Positions 4,224 through 27,686 of a stretch of DNA of 64,000 bases are shown here, piece by piece. The notes under the pieces are model-generated. The model was not told the DNA's origin. It saw nothing but the letters and a program-made list of their open reading frames with translations, and ran no database searches. The translations under genes were made by a program, and so were the position numbers. Positions within the stretch are counted from its first letter, which is position 1. Every line of letters begins with the position of its first letter. Source of the DNA: an archaeon (GTDB taxonomy: Archaea; SpSt-1190; DYHY01); contig JAZDJS010000021.1 in NCBI GenBank assembly GCA_043803745.1, positions 25,357 to 89,356 of the forward strand, read 5' to 3'.

Positions 4224-5264
4224 ATGGGCCTTCAGATAAGGGAAATCATTCCGAAATCCGCCGTTAGCGCGGTTTCCCTGGATTCTTTCAAAGGAACCGT
4301 CGTTGCGGTCGATGCATTCAACGCGCTCTACCAGTTCCTTGCGACAATCCGGCAGCAGGACGGTACGCCTCTTATGGATTCGGCGGGGAAGGTTACGAGC
4401 CATTTGTCCGGGATTTTCTACAGGAACATCCGGCTTCTTGAGGCTGGGGCGCGGATTGTCTATGTTTTCGACGGGAAAGCCGGGGCTGAAAAGGCGGAGA
4501 CAATCAGGAAGCGGGAGGAAACCAAGAAGAAAGCCGAGGAGAAATACGAGGCAGCTGTTGAGGAAGGGGACCTTGAATCGGCAAGGAAATATGCCCAGGC
4601 AACAAGCAGGCTTGACACCCAGATGATTGAGGAGGCGAAAAGCCTCCTGAAAGCAATGGGAATTCCCGTTGTTAACGCGCCCTCCGAGGGGGAATCCCAG
4701 GCAAGCTTCCTTGCAAAGGAAGGGAAAGCGAATTTTGCGGCAAGCCAGGATTACGACTGCCTCCTTTTCGGCGCGCCAATCCTTGTACGGAACCTGAGCG
4801 CAACAAGCAGAAGGCGCGCGCCCGGCGGGAAATATGTCGAGGTTCCGATTGAGGCAATTGAGCTTGCGAAGGTTCTTGAGGGTTTGAAGCTTGACAGGGA
4901 ACAGCTTGTTGCGCTCGGGATTCTTGTCGGAACTGATTATAATCCGGGGGGAATCAAGGGGATTGGCCCGAAAAAGGCGCTCAATTTGATTGAAAGTGAA
5001 AAAACCTTTGAAAGGATTTTCAAACAGGTTTCGGACAAATGGACTTTCGGGATAACTCCGGAGGAAATCCGGGAGCTTTTTCTGAATCCGAAAGTTGACT
5101 CTTCAGTTGAAATCGGCGAGGAAACTCTCGATTCAGCCAAGATAAAGGAGATTCTTTGCGGCAAGCACGAGTTCTCAGCAGAGAGAATTGATTCATCGCT
5201 CAGCAAGCTTCAGAGTATTGTTTCCGAGTCTAAAAAGCAGAAAGGCTTGAATGAGTGGTTTTAG
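4224..5264 (+). CDS. fen: Flap endonuclease 1
   Basis: DAFNALYQFL, VFDG, APSEGESQA, SQDYD and GIKGIGPKKA motifs, with the C-terminal PIP box QKGLNEWF. Confidence 0.97.
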   Translation: MGLQIREIIPKSAVSAVSLDSFKGTVVAVDAFNALYQFLATIRQQDGTPLMDSAGKVTSHLSGIFYRNIRLLEAGARIVYVFDGKAGAEKAETIRKREETKKKAEEKYEAAVEEGDLESARKYAQATSRLDTQMIEEAKSLLKAMGIPVVNAPSEGESQASFLAKEGKANFAASQDYDCLLFGAPILVRNLSATSRRRAPGGKYVEVPIEAIELAKVLEGLKLDREQLVALGILVGTDYNPGGIKGIGPKKALNLIESEKTFERIFKQVSDKWTFGITPEEIRELFLNPKVDSSVEIGEETLDSAKIKEILCGKHEFSAERIDSSLSKLQSIVSESKKQKGLNEWF

Positions 5265-5411
5265 AGCTGAAAAAGAGATTTTCCCGGCTATAGCCCCTAA
5301 ATGCAAAAACCGAGATTGCATTAACCGTATTTCGTCTGTTTGCGTTCTTCTTTTCCATTTCCTTGTTTTCCAGGTTCCGGTGTTCTTTTTTCTTTTCTTG
5401 ATCAGTCCTTT

Positions 5412-5522
5412 TTACTCAACAAGAGCCAATATCTTGCTGAGAAGAACTGCGTTTGCAGCTACCAGGGCTGCGATTGCTCCCAGTAGTGCTCCTGTCACTA
5501 CCACGTTCTCCCCCCTCCCCAT
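5412..5522 (-). CDS. Putative 36-aa single-TM microprotein
   Basis: MGEGENVVVTGALLGAIAALVAANAVLLSKILALVE*, with an AT-rich promoter-like stretch just upstream. Confidence 0.5.
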   Translation of the reverse strand: MGRGENVVVTGALLGAIAALVAANAVLLSKILALVE

Positions 5523-5610
5523 TACATATGCCCTCAATTTGCTTAAAGAGTTTATTGTAAGTACCTTACAACAGTGCTATTCCTGATTTTGACCGGATAG
5601 GGACAAATTT

Positions 5611-6465
5611 TCAATTTCTTGCGCTGAAAAAACCGTCGAAATCCTCGTATTTTTCCGCCCCGTCAGCTTCCTTAAGGAGCGCAAAGCCGTCCTTCAGGTC
5701 CTTCCCAAGGCAGGCTCCGGCAAGGATTGCGGAAACGATCGGGGTCCTCCGCTTGAACTTCCCAATCCTTTCTTGGGAGAACCTTTCCAAATAGACTTGC
5801 TTCTCTCCGGAAGTGAGCTCGTCCCAGGAAACGAACCCCCAGTTGGAAAAGCCGGAGATTTCCGCTTCATCCCTGACTGATTTTACCAGAGAGAGGGCGC
5901 CGTTCAGGGAAGTTGCCCGCTCCTTTCTCCTTGTATGCCAGCCGGTAAGGGCTTCGCCATAAAGGCAGTCCCCGTCGAAAAGAAGGAGGAGCTTTTCGTG
6001 GTTGAGGTTGTATCTCCTGGGGCGGAAGCTTCCGGCCTCGGAAATTGGATGGTGTTCCGAAACCCTTGGGAACCCCGTGGGGAACTCTCGGGGAAGGCCG
6101 GCAGTAACATAGACGGTTCGCTTTTTCTTGGCAATTTCCGGGCTGAATGAGGAGCAGCCAATGCTTCCTGGGGAATACTGGGTGTCTGTGTGCTGGTCAA
6201 CGAATAGGACGGGGTGTTCCGCGGAGTATTTTGCTGAGAAAGGATAGTCATAGTGATGAAATGCGTTGGACGGTCCAAGAATGTATGCAGGAACTTGAAC
6301 CTGTTCGAACGTCTTTAGGAGGGCTGCGTTACCAGGTTCCCATATGAAAAAGTCCTCCGCAGGAAGGGGGAGCGGAGCAAGAGTCTCACCCCAGAGGAGC
6401 TTGAGAACCTTCGCAGTCCGTTCGGGGGATTCCGAGCCGGCTATTTCAAGGGCGTAGCCTTGCAT
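5611..6465 (-). CDS. Arginase/ureohydrolase-fold protein, divergent
   Basis: GPSNAFHH, VDQHTD and FDGDCL resemble the ureohydrolase metal motifs (H, DxHxD, DxD). Confidence 0.6.
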   Translation of the reverse strand: MQGYALEIAGSESPERTAKVLKLLWGETLAPLPLPAEDFFIWEPGNAALLKTFEQVQVPAYILGPSNAFHHYDYPFSAKYSAEHPVLFVDQHTDTQYSPGSIGCSSFSPEIAKKKRTVYVTAGLPREFPTGFPRVSEHHPISEAGSFRPRRYNLNHEKLLLLFDGDCLYGEALTGWHTRRKERATSLNGALSLVKSVRDEAEISGFSNWGFVSWDELTSGEKQVYLERFSQERIGKFKRRTPIVSAILAGACLGKDLKDGFALLKEADGAEKYEDFDGFFSARN

Positions 6466-6550: not shown

Positions 6551-6566
6551 AAGAAAGGATTATAAG
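6551..6566 (+). promoter_or_regulatory. BRE-TATA promoter of the HD-GYP/CitG gene
   Basis: AAGAAAGGATTATAAG lies about 30 bp before ATG 6595. A similar GAAAGGNTTAWAA motif precedes cdc6, the pilin genes and aIF-1A. Confidence 0.6.
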
Positions 6567-6594: not shown

Positions 6595-8061
6595 ATGGCG
6601 AACTTTGGAACTGAGGAGCTTGAAAGAGAGCTTGGGGGAGCTTTCGCAATATTCTCAGTTTCTCCCTCCGACCAGGAAAAGATCCGCGCCCGGCTTAAAG
6701 AGATCAGGGAAGTTGACGAGGAAACATACCGGCATTCTGTGCGGGACGGACTGAAAGCTTCTGAAATCGCGAGCTACCTGAATCTTGACCCGAAACCGGC
6801 TCTCATTTCAGGGAGCCTTCATGATTTCGGGAAAACTAAAGTTCCTGAAGCGCTCCTTAGAAAAAAATCCGGCTTTTCCGAGGAAGATTATGCTGTAATG
6901 GAAGGGCACGTCCTTGCCGGCTACGAGGCTCTTAAGGTTGATTTCCCCTTCTCAGCTGAAATCCTCCTAAGGCATCACATATTCCAGGAAAGGGGTTATC
7001 CGAAAAGCCTGCCAAAGCCAAGCAAACCATTTTCCGAAGGAACCCTTGCAACAATCGGCTTCTATTCAAGGCTGCTTGCCCTTGCGGATTTTTACGACGC
7101 AATAACAACGAGGAAGAACGACATGTTCGGGGGGGCGCTTTCGAAAGCTGATGCAAAGGCCATTTTCCTTGCCAAGAGCCCGGACCAAAAAAGGCTGATA
7201 AATGCTCTTTACAATAATTCGGTTTTCGACAGCGGGGAGAAAGCTGATTCCGGAAAGGAGGGAATTTACCCCCTTGCGTTTGGAAGGGCTGCGGAAACCA
7301 GGCAACCGCGGGAAATAAGGCGGCTTGTGACCCTTGCCTCCGCCCTTGAGCCCCTCTCCGACAAACCTGGACTGACAACAAGGCATTCTGACATTAGCAG
7401 GCACCTGAAACTTCCCTATTTCGTTGCTTCAGCAATAAACATCGGGGATGCTTTCGAGGATTTGGCTGAATCCCTGGCCGGAGGGACCCAACCAGATGAA
7501 ATTTACAGCCACGCCCTTACCGCGCAACTCGAAGCTGTAAGAAATAGGGATGGGGGAAGGGTAATACAGGGAGAAATAGAGCTTTTCCTCCCAATTGTTG
7601 CGGCGCAGATTCTCTATGACCGGGACAGAACCCTTTCCGTTGACGAACTTCTTGGCAAGGCTGTTGAAGTCCTGAAAGCGACGGGTGAAGTGGATGTGAA
7701 AAATCTCTGGGAAATGAAAGCTGCCGCGAACGCCCTTTCAGAATATGCGCGGACAGTTCCGGAGCATCCGGAAGCCAAAAGCGTTTACGACTATTACCTC
7801 TTCGACCTTGGCTCGTCTGAAGGGAAGCCGACAAGCGTTGCCCATAACGGAGAGTTCGTGCGGGGATTCCCAGCTGTCAGGAAAGCTTACGAGCTTATTT
7901 CAGGAAGTGGGAAGAAGGATTTCAACAAGCGGGTTGAGGAAGCTTATGCACAAATCCGGCTCGAAACCCCGGAAGTTTCCCCCGGCTTCACCGCCGACTG
8001 CATTGCGGCTGGGATTTACCTAGCGCTTTCCCAGAACCCTAGAGAGAAATTAATCAAATAA
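6595..8061 (+). CDS. HD-GYP phosphohydrolase fused to a CitG-like (triphosphoribosyl-dephospho-CoA synthase) domain
   Basis: N-terminal half: TYRHS, LHDFGK, EGHV, RHH..RGYP, ADFYDAIT. C-terminal half: ALEPLSDKPGLT..FVASA, QGEIELFLPI, SPGFTADCIAAGIY. Confidence 0.75.
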   Translation: MANFGTEELERELGGAFAIFSVSPSDQEKIRARLKEIREVDEETYRHSVRDGLKASEIASYLNLDPKPALISGSLHDFGKTKVPEALLRKKSGFSEEDYAVMEGHVLAGYEALKVDFPFSAEILLRHHIFQERGYPKSLPKPSKPFSEGTLATIGFYSRLLALADFYDAITTRKNDMFGGALSKADAKAIFLAKSPDQKRLINALYNNSVFDSGEKADSGKEGIYPLAFGRAAETRQPREIRRLVTLASALEPLSDKPGLTTRHSDISRHLKLPYFVASAINIGDAFEDLAESLAGGTQPDEIYSHALTAQLEAVRNRDGGRVIQGEIELFLPIVAAQILYDRDRTLSVDELLGKAVEVLKATGEVDVKNLWEMKAAANALSEYARTVPEHPEAKSVYDYYLFDLGSSEGKPTSVAHNGEFVRGFPAVRKAYELISGSGKKDFNKRVEEAYAQIRLETPEVSPGFTADCIAAGIYLALSQNPREKLIK

Positions 8062-8063
8062 GT

Positions 8064-8408
8064 CTAGGCAAAGTTCTCGAAAAGCTCGGATTTCTGGGCC
8101 ATCAGGGCGGCTCCAATGAAGGAAATCGCGACAAGGAACCGGAGGATGAAGTCGACAAGGAGGAGAATCGGAATTTCCCCGTGGTTCGTTATTATCTCCG
8201 AGGAGATGAAAAGCGTGAACCCGTTGAAGAAAAGCGCGAGATAGAGGAGGACGAATACGAGGTCGTTCTTGGTCATCGTGACATATGTTTTCGAGACTGT
8301 TATCTTCTTGAAGACAATTGACGTGAATATCCGGAGGGCTGCCGCATAGCCGAGGAGGTAGACTACTGATGCAATGAATCCGGGGGAAATGTGTATGCTT
8401 ACCGCCAT
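8064..8408 (-). CDS. Three-TM membrane protein
   Basis: Three hydrophobic helices in 114 aa. Confidence 0.7.
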   Translation of the reverse strand: MAVSIHISPGFIASVVYLLGYAAALRIFTSIVFKKITVSKTYVTMTKNDLVFVLLYLALFFNGFTLFISSEIITNHGEIPILLLVDFILRFLVAISFIGAALMAQKSELFENFA

Positions 8409-8459
8409 CCCCCATTCTAGGCTGCCGATACTATTTAATGAGATTGGAAAAACCGCTTT

Positions 8460-9353
8460 TCACCTGACAATCGCGCCCGGATATTTTTCAGCCAGGCTTT
8501 CGACTTCGCCGGGGTCGAAGGGAACTGAACTGATGATGATGTCGGGAGCTTTTGCAAGCCCGTCCTTGTATTTCCTCAAGGCGCCTTCGGGATTCACAAG
8601 AAGTTCGCTCAGGAATGCGAGCTCATTACCCGCGGACGGATATTCCCGAGAGCTTATCGGAAGGGCCTGCCACAGGAAGCCGTACCAGTGTGTTAGGATG
8701 TTGTCAGTTACTGCCTCAAGCAGTCCGGGAGTTTTCAAGTTCTTCCGGGGTTCCGGACGACCCATTCCGGGAACTTTCAGTTCCGGAACATCCCAGCCCG
8801 CCGCAACAGTTTCCCCGACACTGGAAATTAGCTCATCGGCTGCGGAATATCCCGCGCCTTCCCGGAGCTTGGAACGCCTTCCCAGCGACAGGTATTCGCC
8901 TTTCGGAAGGGTGAAAAGAACGTCCGGAGGATATTCGGTCTCCGTCTTGTAGGGAGGGAATTTCCCGGAAAAAACGTGCATAATTCCGTGGGCAATTTCT
9001 CTTGAACCGGCCCAGGGGGCAAGGAAAACGATTGGATGACCGCACGCGGACTGCTCTGAAAGCAAGGTGTATTCGCTAAGGATGGATTCCCTTGGAAAGT
9101 CCGCGAGCTCCCAACCCCCTTCGCACGGAAGGAAGGTTTCCACGCGTTTGGGACCTCTGGGAAGCGCAGGTACGAAATAAGCGTCAATTGAAACTTCCAG
9201 AACCTGTTCAAACTTTCCAGCAATTATTTCCGCCTGTTTTGCAATCCTGGAGTATTCTCGCTCAAGGAGAAAGGGCGGGAGGGGAAAAGAGCTTGCTTCG
9301 GAAAGCAGAGCAAGATCTTCTTTGCCGAATCCAATTGCGGTCAAGTCGGGCAT
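8460..9353 (-). CDS. Hypothetical protein (HxxxH motif EIAHGIMH)
   Basis: 297-aa ORF with an ATG start and an upstream TATA-like sequence. Confidence 0.65.
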   Translation of the reverse strand: MPDLTAIGFGKEDLALLSEASSFPLPPFLLEREYSRIAKQAEIIAGKFEQVLEVSIDAYFVPALPRGPKRVETFLPCEGGWELADFPRESILSEYTLLSEQSACGHPIVFLAPWAGSREIAHGIMHVFSGKFPPYKTETEYPPDVLFTLPKGEYLSLGRRSKLREGAGYSAADELISSVGETVAAGWDVPELKVPGMGRPEPRKNLKTPGLLEAVTDNILTHWYGFLWQALPISSREYPSAGNELAFLSELLVNPEGALRKYKDGLAKAPDIIISSVPFDPGEVESLAEKYPGAIVR

Positions 9354-9416
9354 TCTTGCGGGGAAAAATCAGGCTTGCTTTAAAACAATTATCTATTTTC
9401 AAGTGGTCAATTCGAC

Positions 9417-10163
9417 TTAGGAATACTTGCCCGTTGAAACCGTCCCGAACCAGGGCCTCACTTCAACTGCAACGCTCGGATAATTCTCCCCGACCTTTTC
9501 AAACCGGAAAAGCGTTGCGTTCTCCGGGCAACCCGGACCTATTTCGGTGCAGAGGCAGAGGTCGAGGCGCTTGCCAAGCGGCAGTTTGTCCGGAAGAGTC
9601 GACCGGTTCCAGGAAACCGACGAATTGTCAATTGAGAAAACTATCCTGTCCAAGTCCTCGCGGGGAAGCACTATTTTCCCTGTGTTCCTCAGTTCGGCGC
9701 AGAGAATCGGCCCCTCGTGCCAGATTAGTTCCAAGCTATAGGAAGTCAGCTTATCCCTCTTCAGGTCGGAAAGCTGGAGGGGAGGCTCATTCGGCCCGAT
9801 AATATCTGCGATGTGAAAGTCAGGAATTGAGAGGATTATCCCGAAATAGAGGATTAACGGAACCAGGGCAATCAGGGCGATAGGAAGTATTTTCATCAAA
9901 AGCGGAGCCTTCTTGGCCCGCCGTATCCGCTCGAGCTGGAGATATTTCGAGTTCTGATACTCCTTTATTTTTCCCGTGACAACTGCCTCGCCCTCGAAAT
10001 CAGGTCCCCAGGCATAGATTGTGTCGCTCGTGTCGGTGATTGTGAGCCAACCTTCCCCGGCCGGCTTTACGAGCCCGCTGACCTTTGCGGAAGAGTCCAC
10101 TGGCAGTGCCAAGGCTTCCGAAACTTTCATCAGCGGCTCCAAAGGGGCTTTTTGCTCCGGCAT
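9417..10163 (-). CDS. Membrane protein: N-terminal OB fold, TM helix, then an archaellin-associated/Ig-like domain
   Basis: AKVSGLV..LTITDTSDTI..VTGKIKEY (OB fold), a hydrophobic helix, then LRNTG. Confidence 0.6.
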   Translation of the reverse strand: MPEQKAPLEPLMKVSEALALPVDSSAKVSGLVKPAGEGWLTITDTSDTIYAWGPDFEGEAVVTGKIKEYQNSKYLQLERIRRAKKAPLLMKILPIALIALVPLILYFGIILSIPDFHIADIIGPNEPPLQLSDLKRDKLTSYSLELIWHEGPILCAELRNTGKIVLPREDLDRIVFSIDNSSVSWNRSTLPDKLPLGKRLDLCLCTEIGPGCPENATLFRFEKVGENYPSVAVEVRPWFGTVSTGKYS

Positions 10164-10352
10164 TTTCCGCTGAACCCCGGATTTCCGTGCTTATAATGTT
10201 TGTCGGTTTTCGGGAGCGCCGCTCTTCGAGCTTGGACTCTGCTGAAATTGGTGGGGGCCTGTCAGAAATTCCGACAGGCCCTGTTTCCCTTGGGAGGGGG
10301 GAAAATGAGCAACCGGAGGAATTTTTGTCCAATATAGTATAAAAGGCTTTTG

Positions 10353-10371
10353 GTTGTATGGAGCATACAAC
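10353..10371. promoter_or_regulatory. Palindromic operator candidate
   Basis: GTTGTATG-GAG-CATACAAC is a perfect 8-bp inverted repeat between two TATA-like boxes upstream of a wHTH gene. Confidence 0.55.
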
Positions 10372-10460
10372 AGGAATCATTTATAAGTGCTGGCTGCTAT
10401 TTATTCCAGGGGGGTAAAACCAACTTGACTGCTTCGTCCGGACAGGGTCCAAACCGCCGC

Positions 10461-10793
10461 ATGGAGGCGATAACTCGGACCTTTGTCAACACAATCAGGC
10501 AGGTGACGCCGACCTACCAGAGGAGGATACTCTGCTTCCTTGCGAAAAACCCCGGGAAGAAATTCACCAACATCCAGGTTTCCCAGTCCCTTTCCGAGGA
10601 CAGGAGCAACATCTGGAGATTCATGAACGCGATAATCGAGGACTCCGGGGAGCATGCGATGATTGACAAGATAATCGAGGGCGGGGACATCTACTATAGC
10701 TGGAAGGAACCGAAGATAACGATAGACGGGCTGAAGATCTCAGAAATATTGCGCGTGCTTGAGGAGCTTGAGAAGGAGGCGGAAGAAAAGTAG
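10461..10793 (+). CDS. Winged helix-turn-helix protein
   Basis: RRILCFLAKNPGKKFTNIQVSQSLSEDRSNIWRFM followed by a beta-wing. Confidence 0.7.
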   Translation: MEAITRTFVNTIRQVTPTYQRRILCFLAKNPGKKFTNIQVSQSLSEDRSNIWRFMNAIIEDSGEHAMIDKIIEGGDIYYSWKEPKITIDGLKISEILRVLEELEKEAEEK

Positions 10794-10795
10794 AA

Positions 10796-11428
10796 ATGGA
10801 ATTCGCCCAGACATTCAGGCTTGCCTCGTTCGGTCTTGTAGGGATTCTTGGACTGGCGCTTACCCTGCTGCGCCTGGGCAAGGTTGGAAAGCGGCGACCT
10901 TGGCTTTCGGTTGCGGGGATCGGACTTTCCCTTTCATTCGGCTTTTACACTTTCGCAGAGCTCTACGGGCTTTTCGGGGAACCTGAACGGGAGTTCATAC
11001 ATGCTGCGAGCTTCCTGTTCTTCTGGGCGCTTGCAACGGTCAATTTGCTCGGCTGCCAGAGAAGCACGTTCGTTCTTCCCGTGCTTGAAACGGGCGCTGC
11101 CGCAGCAGTCTCCTGGCTTGTGCTCGGAGAGAAGGGGCTTTTCTTCGCCGCAATTGTCGCGCTCGGGGTGACGATGCATTTCACCTCCCTTTACCACGGA
11201 TTGCTCCGCAGGGTCAACGCCCTTTCGACCGCGCTCAATTTCGGCGTTGTGCTCTGGATGTTCCACGTTTTCGCGCTCTCGACGGGAGCTTCGCCGCCAG
11301 TCTGGCTCGACATCCTGAGGGGGCTCATTGCCCTTGCCTGCCTTTTCCTTTATTTCAGGTTTGCCTCGCCCCAGATTCTGCAGACAAGGATTCAGGCCAA
11401 CGCGCTCAAGAAGGCGTTCAAGGTTTGA
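10796..11428 (+). CDS. Multi-TM membrane protein
   Basis: About 7 hydrophobic segments; starts 2 bp after the wHTH stop codon. Confidence 0.7.
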   Translation: MEFAQTFRLASFGLVGILGLALTLLRLGKVGKRRPWLSVAGIGLSLSFGFYTFAELYGLFGEPEREFIHAASFLFFWALATVNLLGCQRSTFVLPVLETGAAAAVSWLVLGEKGLFFAAIVALGVTMHFTSLYHGLLRRVNALSTALNFGVVLWMFHVFALSTGASPPVWLDILRGLIALACLFLYFRFASPQILQTRIQANALKKAFKV

Positions 11429-11441
11429 GAAAATAAAGAGT

Positions 11442-12038
11442 TCAAAGGGAGCCGCCGCTAACGATTAACTCCCCATTTTCCTGAACGGACACTAGTGTGA
11501 ATTTCTCATTGACGTAAATTGCCTGCTGCCCGCAAATTTCCGGGTTAAATCCCTTGTAGACTGCATCAACCTTCCTTGCCAAATCGGAACTCTTGTAGCT
11601 TAAGGCGGAGCGCGCCAGCCCCTCCACAAACTTACTCTCATCATATGAACCGTTAAAAGAGATTATAGGAAATCTATCTATTTCAATCAATCGAGTTTCG
11701 AATTTTCCTCCCCTGCGCGCCATCGTGTAAATGAAACCTTCATAAGGCGAAATGCCAAAGCAAACGTCGGTTTTTTCAGCAGATTCAGGTTCCAATTTGG
11801 CACTTTTTAATTTCTCAGCTAACTCTTCAAAAGTTTTTGCACCCGCCAAGTCAAGATGATTGTACTCACCGGGCTTTTCGTTAGGGAGAATGAATGCTTG
11901 TTTTTTGTCAGATGTCAGGTGTATTTCTAAGGGAGGTACGTTAGGAATAGCATAAGAGGCTAACGCAGCACTAGTCGTAGGTTCGTCTGTTGTCGCAATT
12001 GCTGAAACGTAACAGTTCGGGACTTCTGAATCGTCCAT
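11442..12038 (-). CDS. Hypothetical protein, AT-rich relative to its flanks
   Basis: About 200-aa ORF with visibly lower GC than the neighbouring genes. Confidence 0.65.
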   Translation of the reverse strand: MDDSEVPNCYVSAIATTDEPTTSAALASYAIPNVPPLEIHLTSDKKQAFILPNEKPGEYNHLDLAGAKTFEELAEKLKSAKLEPESAEKTDVCFGISPYEGFIYTMARRGGKFETRLIEIDRFPIISFNGSYDESKFVEGLARSALSYKSSDLARKVDAVYKGFNPEICGQQAIYVNEKFTLVSVQENGELIVSGGSL

Positions 12039-12061
12039 AGCTAGTAAACAATCCAACTTCC

Positions 12062-25215: not shown

Positions 25216-26460
25216 ATGAGCTTTCCAGTCCTCCCGGTTGCGATTTTCGCAATAACCTTTTTCCTTATATTCACCGAGAGGATTAACAGGACGCTTGCGG
25301 CGCTCCTCGGAGGATTTTCAATGGTCGCCTTCGGGGTGATAACCGGAGGGGAAGCGCTCGCATCAATCGAATTCACCGCAATTTCCTCGATTATCGGAAT
25401 ACTCATCCTGGTCTCCGTCGTGAGATCGAGCGGGCTTTTCGCATGGCTCGCGATAAAGGTGGTCAAACTTTCGAAGGGGAATCCCGCAAAGCTGATGGTT
25501 GCGCTTTCGCTTCTTTCCGCTTTTGTTGCGTCATTCCTAGGGGGGACTGCGACAATCCTGATAATGGGCGGACTGATCGTCACGATCTGCAAGCAGCTGA
25601 ACCTGAAAGTTCCGCCTTACCTGATGGCTTCGGCTCTGATGACTTCGGTTGGGGGGGGATTCTTCCTTACAGGGAGCTCGATAAACATACTCCTTTCAAA
25701 CGCGGGAGGGTTCTCATTCATTGACTTCTTCAGCAACAGCCTCCCGATTTCCCTCCTGCTCGGGATAATCACCTCCCTGTTCTTCGTCTGGTATTTCAAA
25801 ATAGAGAACAAGGAATCGGGGGAAATCCTTCTTGACGAAAAGCAGGCGATTACGGACTGGAAGAAATTCTGGATTACAATGGCGCTCCTATCCGGGACAA
25901 TCTTCCTTTTCATAATCTCCGGATTCGTCGGCCTGACCGTCGAGATGATTGCAATCGGCTCCGGGATACTTGCGCTTCTCCTTACGGGATTCGAGCCTGA
26001 AAAGGCTTTCAGGGAGGTTCAGTGGGAAACCCTGTTCTTCCTGATTGGCGTTTTCGTTGTAATGGGCGGCCTTGAGAAGAGCGGGGTCTTCCACGCCGTT
26101 GCAAGCGTGCTTGCCCCGATCGTGAAGGGGGATTCCGGAAGGCTCCTGCTCATAGGGATAATCGGGCCAATATCGGGGATAGTCCACTCCCTTCCGATAA
26201 CGGTCGCGCTGATACCGATTGTGAAGGAGATTGTCGGAATAACGGGTGAATTGGCGGGACCCATCTTCTGGACGCTGATTCTTGCCATAAATTTCGGGGA
26301 GAACCTGACTCCGCTCGGCTCAACTTCCAGCATACTTGCGATGGGGATTGGAAAGACCTCCGGCCAGCCGGTCAGCTTCGCGGAATTCCTGAAAATAGGC
26401 GCAATTCTCTGCGCAATCCACCTGACGATCGCCGGGATATGGGTTTTCTTCAGGTACTAG
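25216..26460 (+). CDS. ArsB/NhaD (SLC13/CitMHS) family transporter
   Basis: About 12 TM helices; SGLFAWLA, WETLFFLIG and GENLTPLGS motifs. Confidence 0.88.
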   Translation: MSFPVLPVAIFAITFFLIFTERINRTLAALLGGFSMVAFGVITGGEALASIEFTAISSIIGILILVSVVRSSGLFAWLAIKVVKLSKGNPAKLMVALSLLSAFVASFLGGTATILIMGGLIVTICKQLNLKVPPYLMASALMTSVGGGFFLTGSSINILLSNAGGFSFIDFFSNSLPISLLLGIITSLFFVWYFKIENKESGEILLDEKQAITDWKKFWITMALLSGTIFLFIISGFVGLTVEMIAIGSGILALLLTGFEPEKAFREVQWETLFFLIGVFVVMGGLEKSGVFHAVASVLAPIVKGDSGRLLLIGIIGPISGIVHSLPITVALIPIVKEIVGITGELAGPIFWTLILAINFGENLTPLGSTSSILAMGIGKTSGQPVSFAEFLKIGAILCAIHLTIAGIWVFFRY

Positions 26461-27568: not shown

Positions 27569-27686
27569 GGGTCCATAGCTCAGCCCGGTAGAGCGGCAGT
27601 CTTATATGACTGTGTTCTATACACAAAGGATAGACTAGGTCTGAGTCAGCTGTTGGTCATGGGTTCGAATCCCATTGGGCCCACCA
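27569..27686 (+). tRNA. tRNA-Ile(UAU) with a 41-nt intron at position 37/38 (27607-27647)
   Basis: Cloverleaf with loop CU-UAU-A|A. The BHB motif is formed by the CUUA/UGAG helix, two 3-nt bulges and the GACU/GGUC intron stem. CCA is encoded. Confidence 0.9.

Follow-up and report, generated by a model that had tools for sequence, protein, structure and literature searches.

An archaeal protein joining an HD-GYP-type phosphohydrolase to a distinct branch of the CitG fold

Introduction

What would a single archaeal protein do with a phosphohydrolase domain of the HD-GYP type and, behind it, a domain resembling the ribose-transferring enzyme CitG? This question is raised by the gene at 6595..8061 (plus strand) of a 64,000-nucleotide stretch of DNA, hereafter the window, which covers positions 25,357 to 89,356 of contig JAZDJS010000021.1 in the assembly of an archaeon (GTDB lineage Archaea; SpSt-1190; DYHY01; GCA_043803745.1). 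CitG and MdcB take adenosine triphosphate (ATP) as donor, expel adenine and move the ribose-5-triphosphate to a hydroxyl of the acceptor, dephospho-coenzyme A (dephospho-CoA). To our knowledge, no other enzyme type that has been characterised uses ATP in this way, and the known roles of the CitG fold are confined to the making of prosthetic groups for two enzyme complexes. A reading made earlier from the letters of the window and their translations (the sequence-only reading) described the product as an HD-GYP phosphodiesterase fused to a CitG-like ribosyltransferase, and proposed that its halves make and break a nucleotide signal. The present analysis showed that the fusion gene is a real, intact, stand-alone gene that encodes a two-module enzyme; the fusion family probably makes or processes a ribosylated nucleotide. 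As a tentative preference, to which we would give somewhat less than an even chance, the protein would work in two steps, ribosylating a nucleotide-like acceptor with ATP as the source and trimming or preparing the phosphates of that acceptor.

Results

Recurrence of the fusion

The open reading frame (ORF) starts with ATG and encodes 488 aa plus a stop codon, with no internal stops; the opposite strand is closed and stop-rich. A word-indexed protein search recovered 17 relatives over the full length, 43-52% identical, and another 4 proteins that consist of the C-terminal half only. The scan of GTDB species genomes gave 22 loci, 17 with the fused gene (6 archaeal-labelled and 11 bacterial-labelled, the latter mostly from the Candidate Phyla Radiation, CPR) and 5 with the C-half only. 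The bacterial labels of the fused loci were Saccharibacteria, Jorgensen-, Harrison-, Yanofsky-, Moranii-, Microgenomatus, two 'Bdellovibrionales' and one 'Gammaproteobacteria'. An assembly chimera confined to a single genome, a doubt that the sequence-only reading had raised itself, was ruled out by the presence of the architecture on many independent contigs. That reading also knew of no description of the architecture, and full-text literature searching, with subscription journals, InterPro architecture tables and supplements outside its scope, found none. The two folds are already known, which does not hold for the branch, its fusion or its function.

The N-terminal HD-GYP-type module

In the translation the N-terminal half carries H47, H76-D77 followed by K80, H105, H127-H128, G134-Y135-P136 and D165/D168. 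Pfam HD (PF01966) matched residues 44-167 with 34.7 bits (cut-off 22). The HD-GYP-specific family HD_5 (PF13487) reached 21.0 bits in the window protein, under its cut-off of 27.2; for the full-length relatives, precomputed domain annotation lists HD_5 in 13 of 17. When the protein was searched against the PDB with phmmer, the HD-GYP enzymes 4mcw (E 2.9e-10) and 4r8z (E 2.4e-5) were found. In the AlphaFold2 model the HD-GYP-type fold spans residues about 23-213, and this part matched PmGH (4mcw, Z 15.9), DvhD (9rbz, Z 15.2), PA4781 (4r8z, Z 15.1) and PgpH, an HD-domain phosphodiesterase of cyclic di-AMP (4s1b, Z 14.0); Foldseek gave a concordant result. The HD-GYP assignment of the sequence-only reading was therefore borne out, at the level of the general HD family rather than of HD_5 where profiles are concerned.

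H47, H76, D77, K80, H105, H127, H128, Y135, P136, D165 and D168 are kept in all 18 fused sequences. G134 is kept in 12 of the 18, and E43, which aligns with the third-metal glutamate of 4mcw, in only four. The longer form of the HD-GYP motif, HHExxDGxGYP, is only partly kept, and the window protein reads HHIFQERGYP in this region. Because the ligands are kept throughout the fused sequences and E43 in so few, the HD domain looks catalytically competent and probably holds a two-metal site. With the structurally characterised enzymes the protein thus has in common the fold, the H, HD, K, H, HH and D ligands and GYP. It is unlike them in having no REC, GAF or PAS partner, in its sub-threshold HD_5 score and in mostly not keeping the extra glutamate of 4mcw. 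The statement of the sequence-only reading that HD-GYP domains are essentially bacterial needs softening: the family occurs in archaeal- as well as bacterial-labelled genomes, and archaeal GGDEF-HD-GYP proteins were reported in 2026 (PMC13725321).

The C-terminal CitG-like module

The model of the whole protein had a mean predicted local distance difference test score (pLDDT) of 85.9, and a linker that is poorly modelled in part leads from the first module to the second. Pfam CitG (PF01874) matched residues 243-450 with E 5.7e-9 and 36.4 bits (cut-off 27), and the signature strings LE252PLSDK257PG, F276VASA, G326.I.L..P333 and PG464FTAD468..AA are present. Residues 253-483 of the model superposed on 3h9p, a putative triphosphoribosyl-dephospho-CoA synthase of A. 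fulgidus, with Z 17.4 and a root-mean-square deviation of 2.4 over 179 residues at 25% identity. Foldseek concurred with this comparison (probability 1.00 for the CitG fold, template modelling score 0.63 on the target), so that the fold check proposed with the sequence-only reading came out positive. The entry 3h9p, the best structural match of the C-half, is a stand-alone protein from structural genomics, whose function we take to be untested. Sequence searching reached it neither with the window protein nor with the C-half profile, and searches of PDB sequences with the C-half, as single sequence or as profile, returned nothing meaningful.

The family shares the blocks E..KPG, GG..N.G and PG.TAD with E. 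coli CitG and a canonical archaeal CitG. An hhalign comparison of 66 stand-alone members with four canonical CitGs gave a probability of 98.9 and E 1.2e-17, over the first 142 columns only. At E <= 1e-3 the C-half profile found 166 proteins among 1.84 billion representatives, and two canonical CitGs (Pfam 234-261 bits) were reached only marginally, at E about 5e-6 to 2e-5. Since the profile finds this set and canonical CitGs only at its margin, the C-half is, as judged from sequence comparison, a small branch of its own within the CitG fold and not a canonical CitG. Of the claim that it is CitG-like, the signatures, the Pfam match and the fold thus stood, and identity with the known enzyme did not.

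That the protein is an ordinary CitG or MdcB, making 2'-(5''-triphosphoribosyl)-3'-dephospho-CoA for the acyl carrier protein of citrate lyase or malonate decarboxylase, is extremely improbable. The Pfam score does exceed the gathering threshold, and dephospho-CoA is available in the cell, since an archaeal dephospho-CoA kinase is encoded in the source genome. Against this stand the marginal place of canonical CitGs in the family profile, the lack of their block of about 45 residues around DTN...RGG, the fusion to a phosphohydrolase and the missing context. Neither CitX nor an acyl carrier protein context was found in the source genome (90% complete), and no genes for citrate lyase, malonate decarboxylase or GGDEF proteins were found among the 65 ORFs scanned in the window, in agreement with the sequence-only reading. 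A CitG homologue of methylotrophs, 'orf7', has been linked to methanopterin and would be a precedent outside the two enzyme complexes; the methanopterin-associated proteins are canonical in type, and the window family is not that group. Separately, canonical CitGs of about 210 bits were observed in two genomes of 3.6-3.8 Mb from the class of the window genome (L028 and L029, in G008 and G006); unlike these, the small genomes of the class are without canonical CitG.

Across all 22 sequences compared, 29 C-half positions do not vary, and Arg, Lys, Glu or Asp occupies many of these positions. They include R236, R243, E252, K257, R263, N282, N317, R318, G320, G321, R322, G326, E329, D367, K375, R386, E420, G424, F425, E448 and D468. 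This set of invariant E, K, R, N, G and D residues recurs in the stand-alone CitG-like family (about 250-290 aa). On average the C-half is 54% identical to that of the window protein, and the N-half 42%. By this conservation both modules keep catalytic-type residues under selection. Alignments and model together support an active phosphohydrolase in the N-half and an active, or recently active, ribosyltransferase-like module in the C-half.

Partners of the CitG-like module

The CitG-like module occurs alone, fused to an HD-GYP-type domain or a HAD/PNKP phosphatase domain, or beside HD-type genes. To define its partners, 23 longer or atypical hits of the C-half profile were scanned with Pfam. 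HD was found in 12 of them, one carries a HAD_PNKP phosphatase domain (P0090) and one a cNMP-binding domain (P0042), and in four (P0037, P0040, P0052 and P0061) the N-terminus matched no Pfam family; two are canonical CitGs, and the remainder are truncated or unrelated. For the N-terminal 300 aa of two of these four (P0052 and P0037), a DHH-type phosphoesterase was considered and dropped, as Pfam was empty and the homologues are unnamed hypothetical proteins. The domain of P0052 is also found as a widespread family of stand-alone hypothetical proteins without Pfam annotation.

Among stand-alone CitG-like genes, one metagenome locus (L030) has an HD_3/YfbR-like gene that ends 16 nt upstream. 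Of the five genome loci with only the C-half, four (L023-L026) encode directly upstream a protein of about 210 aa that has no Pfam family; its gene overlaps the CitG-like gene in L023-L025, and in L026 a B12 radical-SAM gene intervenes. A TrmB regulator in divergent orientation lies upstream in L024-L026. The 210-aa proteins form a family of more than 100 clusters from nanoarchaeal-type genomes, with the invariant residues H25, H47-D48, K55, H87, H92-H93 and D114. A model of one (pLDDT 95.7) was compared with VIA-align, and the top nine matches were all HD-GYP or HD structures, with 9rbz best at Z 7.3, a modest score for a helical protein, and unrelated rows at or below 3.8. Searches with hhalign, Pfam and PDB profiles gave no match. 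Judging from the model, this is probably an undescribed and very divergent family of HD phosphohydrolases. Among the five genomes with this family that were considered, the two in which the CitG-like gene is not adjacent comprise one without a CitG-like gene nearby or a match to one anywhere in its genome and one in which the gene lies at a contig end. Downstream of an HD-only gene in another genome (G015) the ORF is not CitG-like.

The variety of partners bears on the proposal of the sequence-only reading that the CitG-like half makes a signal, a ribosylated nucleotide, which the HD-GYP half destroys. This proposal was drawn by analogy with RelA/SpoT homologues and GGDEF-HD-GYP hybrids, which likewise join an HD-superfamily hydrolase to a nucleotide-transforming module in one chain. 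The likeness of the two halves to a synthase and a hydrolase speaks for it, as does a patchy distribution like that of accessory signalling genes, and a cNMP-binding domain on one relative hints at nucleotide regulation. In the fusion, unlike in those systems, the second module has a ribosyltransferase fold and not that of a nucleotidyl or pyrophosphoryl transferase. The module also pairs with several unrelated phosphoesterase families and occurs alone, which generic trimming of phosphates explains more easily than a breakdown specific to the product that arose several times over, and no receptor or effector gene was identified nearby in the scanned neighbourhoods. We consider an antagonistic pair unlikely, and we prefer two sequential steps because the module has unrelated phosphoesterases as partners and also lives alone.

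Neighbourhoods in other genomes

When the search was extended to the same architecture and neighbourhood in other genomes, the architecture recurred and the neighbours were varied, including genes of nicotinamide adenine dinucleotide (NAD) metabolism, ADP-ribosylglycohydrolase (ADP, adenosine diphosphate) and radical-SAM genes. In one CPR-labelled genome (L014) the fused gene lies between genes for an NMNAT-like cytidylyltransferase and an NAPRTase, in the order NadA homologue, cytidylyltransferase, fused gene, NAPRTase, isochorismatase, unknown gene and ADP-ribosylglycohydrolase. The NadA homologue was recognised by phmmer against the PDB (1e-29); for the unknown gene (394 aa) no PDB relative was found by sequence. 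A second CPR-labelled locus (L009) has partial synteny with this island. In L010 a gene for ADP-ribosylglycohydrolase follows 114 nt downstream of the fused gene, in the same orientation, and in L016 such a gene lies two genes away. A B12-binding radical-SAM gene directly follows the fused gene in L006 and L019, as it lies inside the split pair of L026. Several of these neighbourhoods point to NAD or ADP-ribose chemistry.

A specific product can be proposed on this basis. It would be an ADP-containing molecule (NAD, nicotinic acid adenine dinucleotide, ADP-ribose or dephospho-CoA) whose adenosine 2'-hydroxyl bears a second ribose phosphate. This metabolite or mark would be written from ATP by the CitG-like module and trimmed by the HD module, and its removal would fall to the ADP-ribosylglycohydrolase that some copies have as a neighbour. 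The ribose-ribose linkage would be of the type found in poly(ADP-ribose). We regard this proposal as doubtful, if worth stating.

The same genes might suggest an effector of anti-phage defence that depletes ATP or NAD-like nucleotides upon infection, and the patchy, transfer-prone distribution, with the window protein grouping among bacterial sequences, would suit such a role. The NAD genes nearby are biosynthetic, however (NadA, NAPRTase, NMNAT-like), and no defence-island genes were seen among the scanned flanks. PADLOC-DB 2.0 gave 0 families for the fusion protein, its five flanking ORFs and the split pair of L024. A role in defence is thus very improbable.

Distribution and phylogeny

The genomes that carry the family are nearly all small (0.6-1.8 Mb), with CPR or DPANN labels. 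The family was found in one of the 17 genomes examined from the phylum of the window genome, and genomes of its own genus and family gave no match to the fusion family. In the tree of the C-domain, which was rooted at the midpoint for drawing only, the split forms lie outside, the archaeal fused forms are basal, and the window protein groups with 11 bacterial sequences (support 99/97). As far as sequences can tell, the tree fits transfer between the domains of life, in either direction.

The reduced metabolism of such organisms could also be served by an ATP or nucleoside triphosphate nucleosidase, in which water or phosphate takes the place of the acceptor; adenine and ribose phosphate would be formed, the HD domain would dephosphorylate the latter, and bases and pentoses would be salvaged. 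The size and labels of the carriers suit this explanation, CitG chemistry does release adenine from ATP, and the partners are generic phosphatases. It has against it that no evidence speaks for water or phosphate as acceptor in any CitG-fold enzyme, that the many invariant residues beyond the triphosphate site suggest a second, specific substrate, and that few even of the small genomes have the gene. Salvage of this kind therefore seems unlikely to be the function.

The locus in the window

The features described here are listed in Table 1.

Table 1. Positions of the features discussed; coordinates are those of the window unless preceded by the handle of another locus.
Feature	Position	Strand	Evidence
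Whole ORF, HD-GYP-type phosphohydrolase and CitG-like domain	6595..8061	+	Open frame; Pfam HD and CitG both over cut-off; AlphaFold2 model
HD-GYP-type metal-dependent phosphohydrolase domain, residues 1-213	6595..7233	+	Pfam, PDB phmmer, fold match, conservation
Interdomain linker, residues 214-235	7234..7299	+	pLDDT < 50 at residues 214-222; variable gapped alignment columns
CitG-fold domain, small distinct branch, residues 236-488	7300..8058	+	PF01874 36.4 bits; 3h9p match; conservation; hhalign
Ile324 codon ATA at a mostly Asn position	7564..7566	+	Alignment of close relatives
TTATAA with a purine-rich run before it; candidate archaeal TATA/BRE	6560..6565	+	30 nt before ATG, by-eye reading
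Genes of the divergent HD-like family, outside the window	L023:85-798, L024:5403-6023, L025:2649-3293, L026:3749-4411		
NAD biosynthesis/salvage island including ADP-ribosylglycohydrolase and the 394-aa unknown gene, outside the window	L014:3378-11868		

The fusion gene looks monocistronic, because the upstream neighbour (5611-6465, minus strand) is divergent and the downstream neighbour (8050-8415, minus strand) is convergent. The TTATAA sequence is a possible TATA box with B recognition element (BRE) of a leaderless or near-leaderless transcript. Scans for sigma-70 promoters and terminators, which do not cover archaeal promoters, gave no signal over shuffle expectation. The guanine-cytosine content of the gene is about 0.50, that of the window 0.54. 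Eight ORFs of 111-297 aa at 5251-6465 and 8050-12056 were without any Pfam family at E <= 0.1, and the region around the fusion gene is functionally dark.

The source assembly comprises 1.23 Mb in 51 contigs. The genome is archaeal: the window has genes for MCM, Cdc6, FEN1 and eIF, together with a tRNA gene that bears an intron; the latter is an Rfam match of 115 nt at 27569-27683 (plus strand), apparently intron-containing and unreported by ARAGORN. A permease of the CitMHS/ArsB family, a 'citrate transporter' family, is encoded at 25216-26460 (194 bits), 17 kb from the fusion gene. No link between it and the CitG-like gene was found, and there are no lyase genes between them.

Discussion

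The two-step enzyme that we prefer would have its CitG-like and HD modules act one after the other on a single nucleotide-type molecule. With ATP as the ribosyl-triphosphate donor, the CitG-like module would ribosylate a hydroxyl of an ADP-containing acceptor, for which dephospho-CoA, available in the cell by virtue of the archaeal kinase, is a candidate by precedent and NAD or ADP-ribose-type molecules are candidates from the neighbouring genes in other genomes. The phosphohydrolase would then trim the new 5''-triphosphate, or it would strip a phosphate beforehand and so expose the hydroxyl of the acceptor. The variety of partners likewise suggests a sequential role. We infer, and purely so, which donor and which acceptor are used; the sequence of the steps and whether the copy with Ile324 is fully active are likewise inferred.

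A number of observations weigh against this mechanism. The first group concerns the partners. One relative (P0042) has a cNMP-binding domain in place of a phosphoesterase, Pfam recognised no family in the N-termini of four CitG-like fusions (P0037, P0040, P0052 and P0061), and in two of these (P0052 and P0037) residues 1-300 form a domain of about 300 aa. Nine distant stand-alone metagenome loci have an HD-type gene directly upstream in a single case (L030) and no other recurrent neighbour, and at L020 the CitG-like gene has no same-strand gene upstream. The modest fold score of the 210-aa family is accompanied by the absence of any Foldseek match to its model at E <= 1e-3, and a CitG-like gene is adjacent in only three of the five genomes with this family. 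The partnership with phosphoesterases is therefore not universal.

The second group concerns context. The ORFs that flank the fusion gene in the window are uninformative, with no Pfam or PADLOC match. ADP-ribosylglycohydrolase is present in 10 of the 18 genomes that carry the fusion family, against 15 of 151 in a DPANN order sample and 6 of 151 in a CPR class sample, counts that overstate the enrichment and are not phylogenetically independent, as the carriers are interrelated and were chosen by feature. The genome of the window has no match to this enzyme, and the CitG-like family was found in none of the 17 background genomes that have it, so that the link is one-way. An orthologue of the radical-SAM partner was not found in the window's genome either (best 65 bits, core only).

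The third group concerns the protein itself. The PF01874 match covers just positions 2-208 of the 284 in the Pfam model, and the canonical block around DTN...RGG is absent from nine of nine aligned family members. The window protein has Ile at position 324, at which 21 of 22 close relatives have Asn; in 66 stand-alone relatives this position is N in 54, S in 6, T in 4, V in 1 and I in 1. The pattern of the species-genome scan demanded Asn here and is unusable for counting this residue. A single-base error is unlikely, as ATA is two bases away from AAT or AAC, and going by the alignment the transferase of the window copy may be altered or weakened.

The changed residue at a near-invariant polar position and the absent block could be taken to mean that the HD-GYP half is the sole enzyme, a phosphodiesterase of cyclic or linear dinucleotides, with the CitG-like half as an inert nucleotide-binding sensor. 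Regulatory partner domains are usual for HD-GYP proteins (PMC13725321). The C-half is nevertheless the better conserved of the two, and the stand-alone family keeps the invariant constellation, which sensors rarely do, just as they rarely live alone. DAC and GGDEF, the cyclases of cyclic dinucleotides, gave no match in the source genome at its 90% completeness. An inert C-half is accordingly quite unlikely, and we retain the two-step enzyme as the preferred explanation.

The CitG-fold branch described here is compact, repeatedly wired to phosphoesterases, and common to CPR bacteria and DPANN-type archaea, organisms of minimal metabolism that depend on hosts for nucleotides and cofactors. Its members are small, soluble and encoded by single genes, which makes direct testing in vitro possible. 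Identification of the acceptor would give a new reaction in nucleotide or cofactor biochemistry and might show how the carriers handle NAD or CoA. If the proposed ribosylated ADP-containing molecule is real, ribosyl-nucleotide chemistry would gain a new branch, at work in ultra-small symbionts among both archaea and bacteria.

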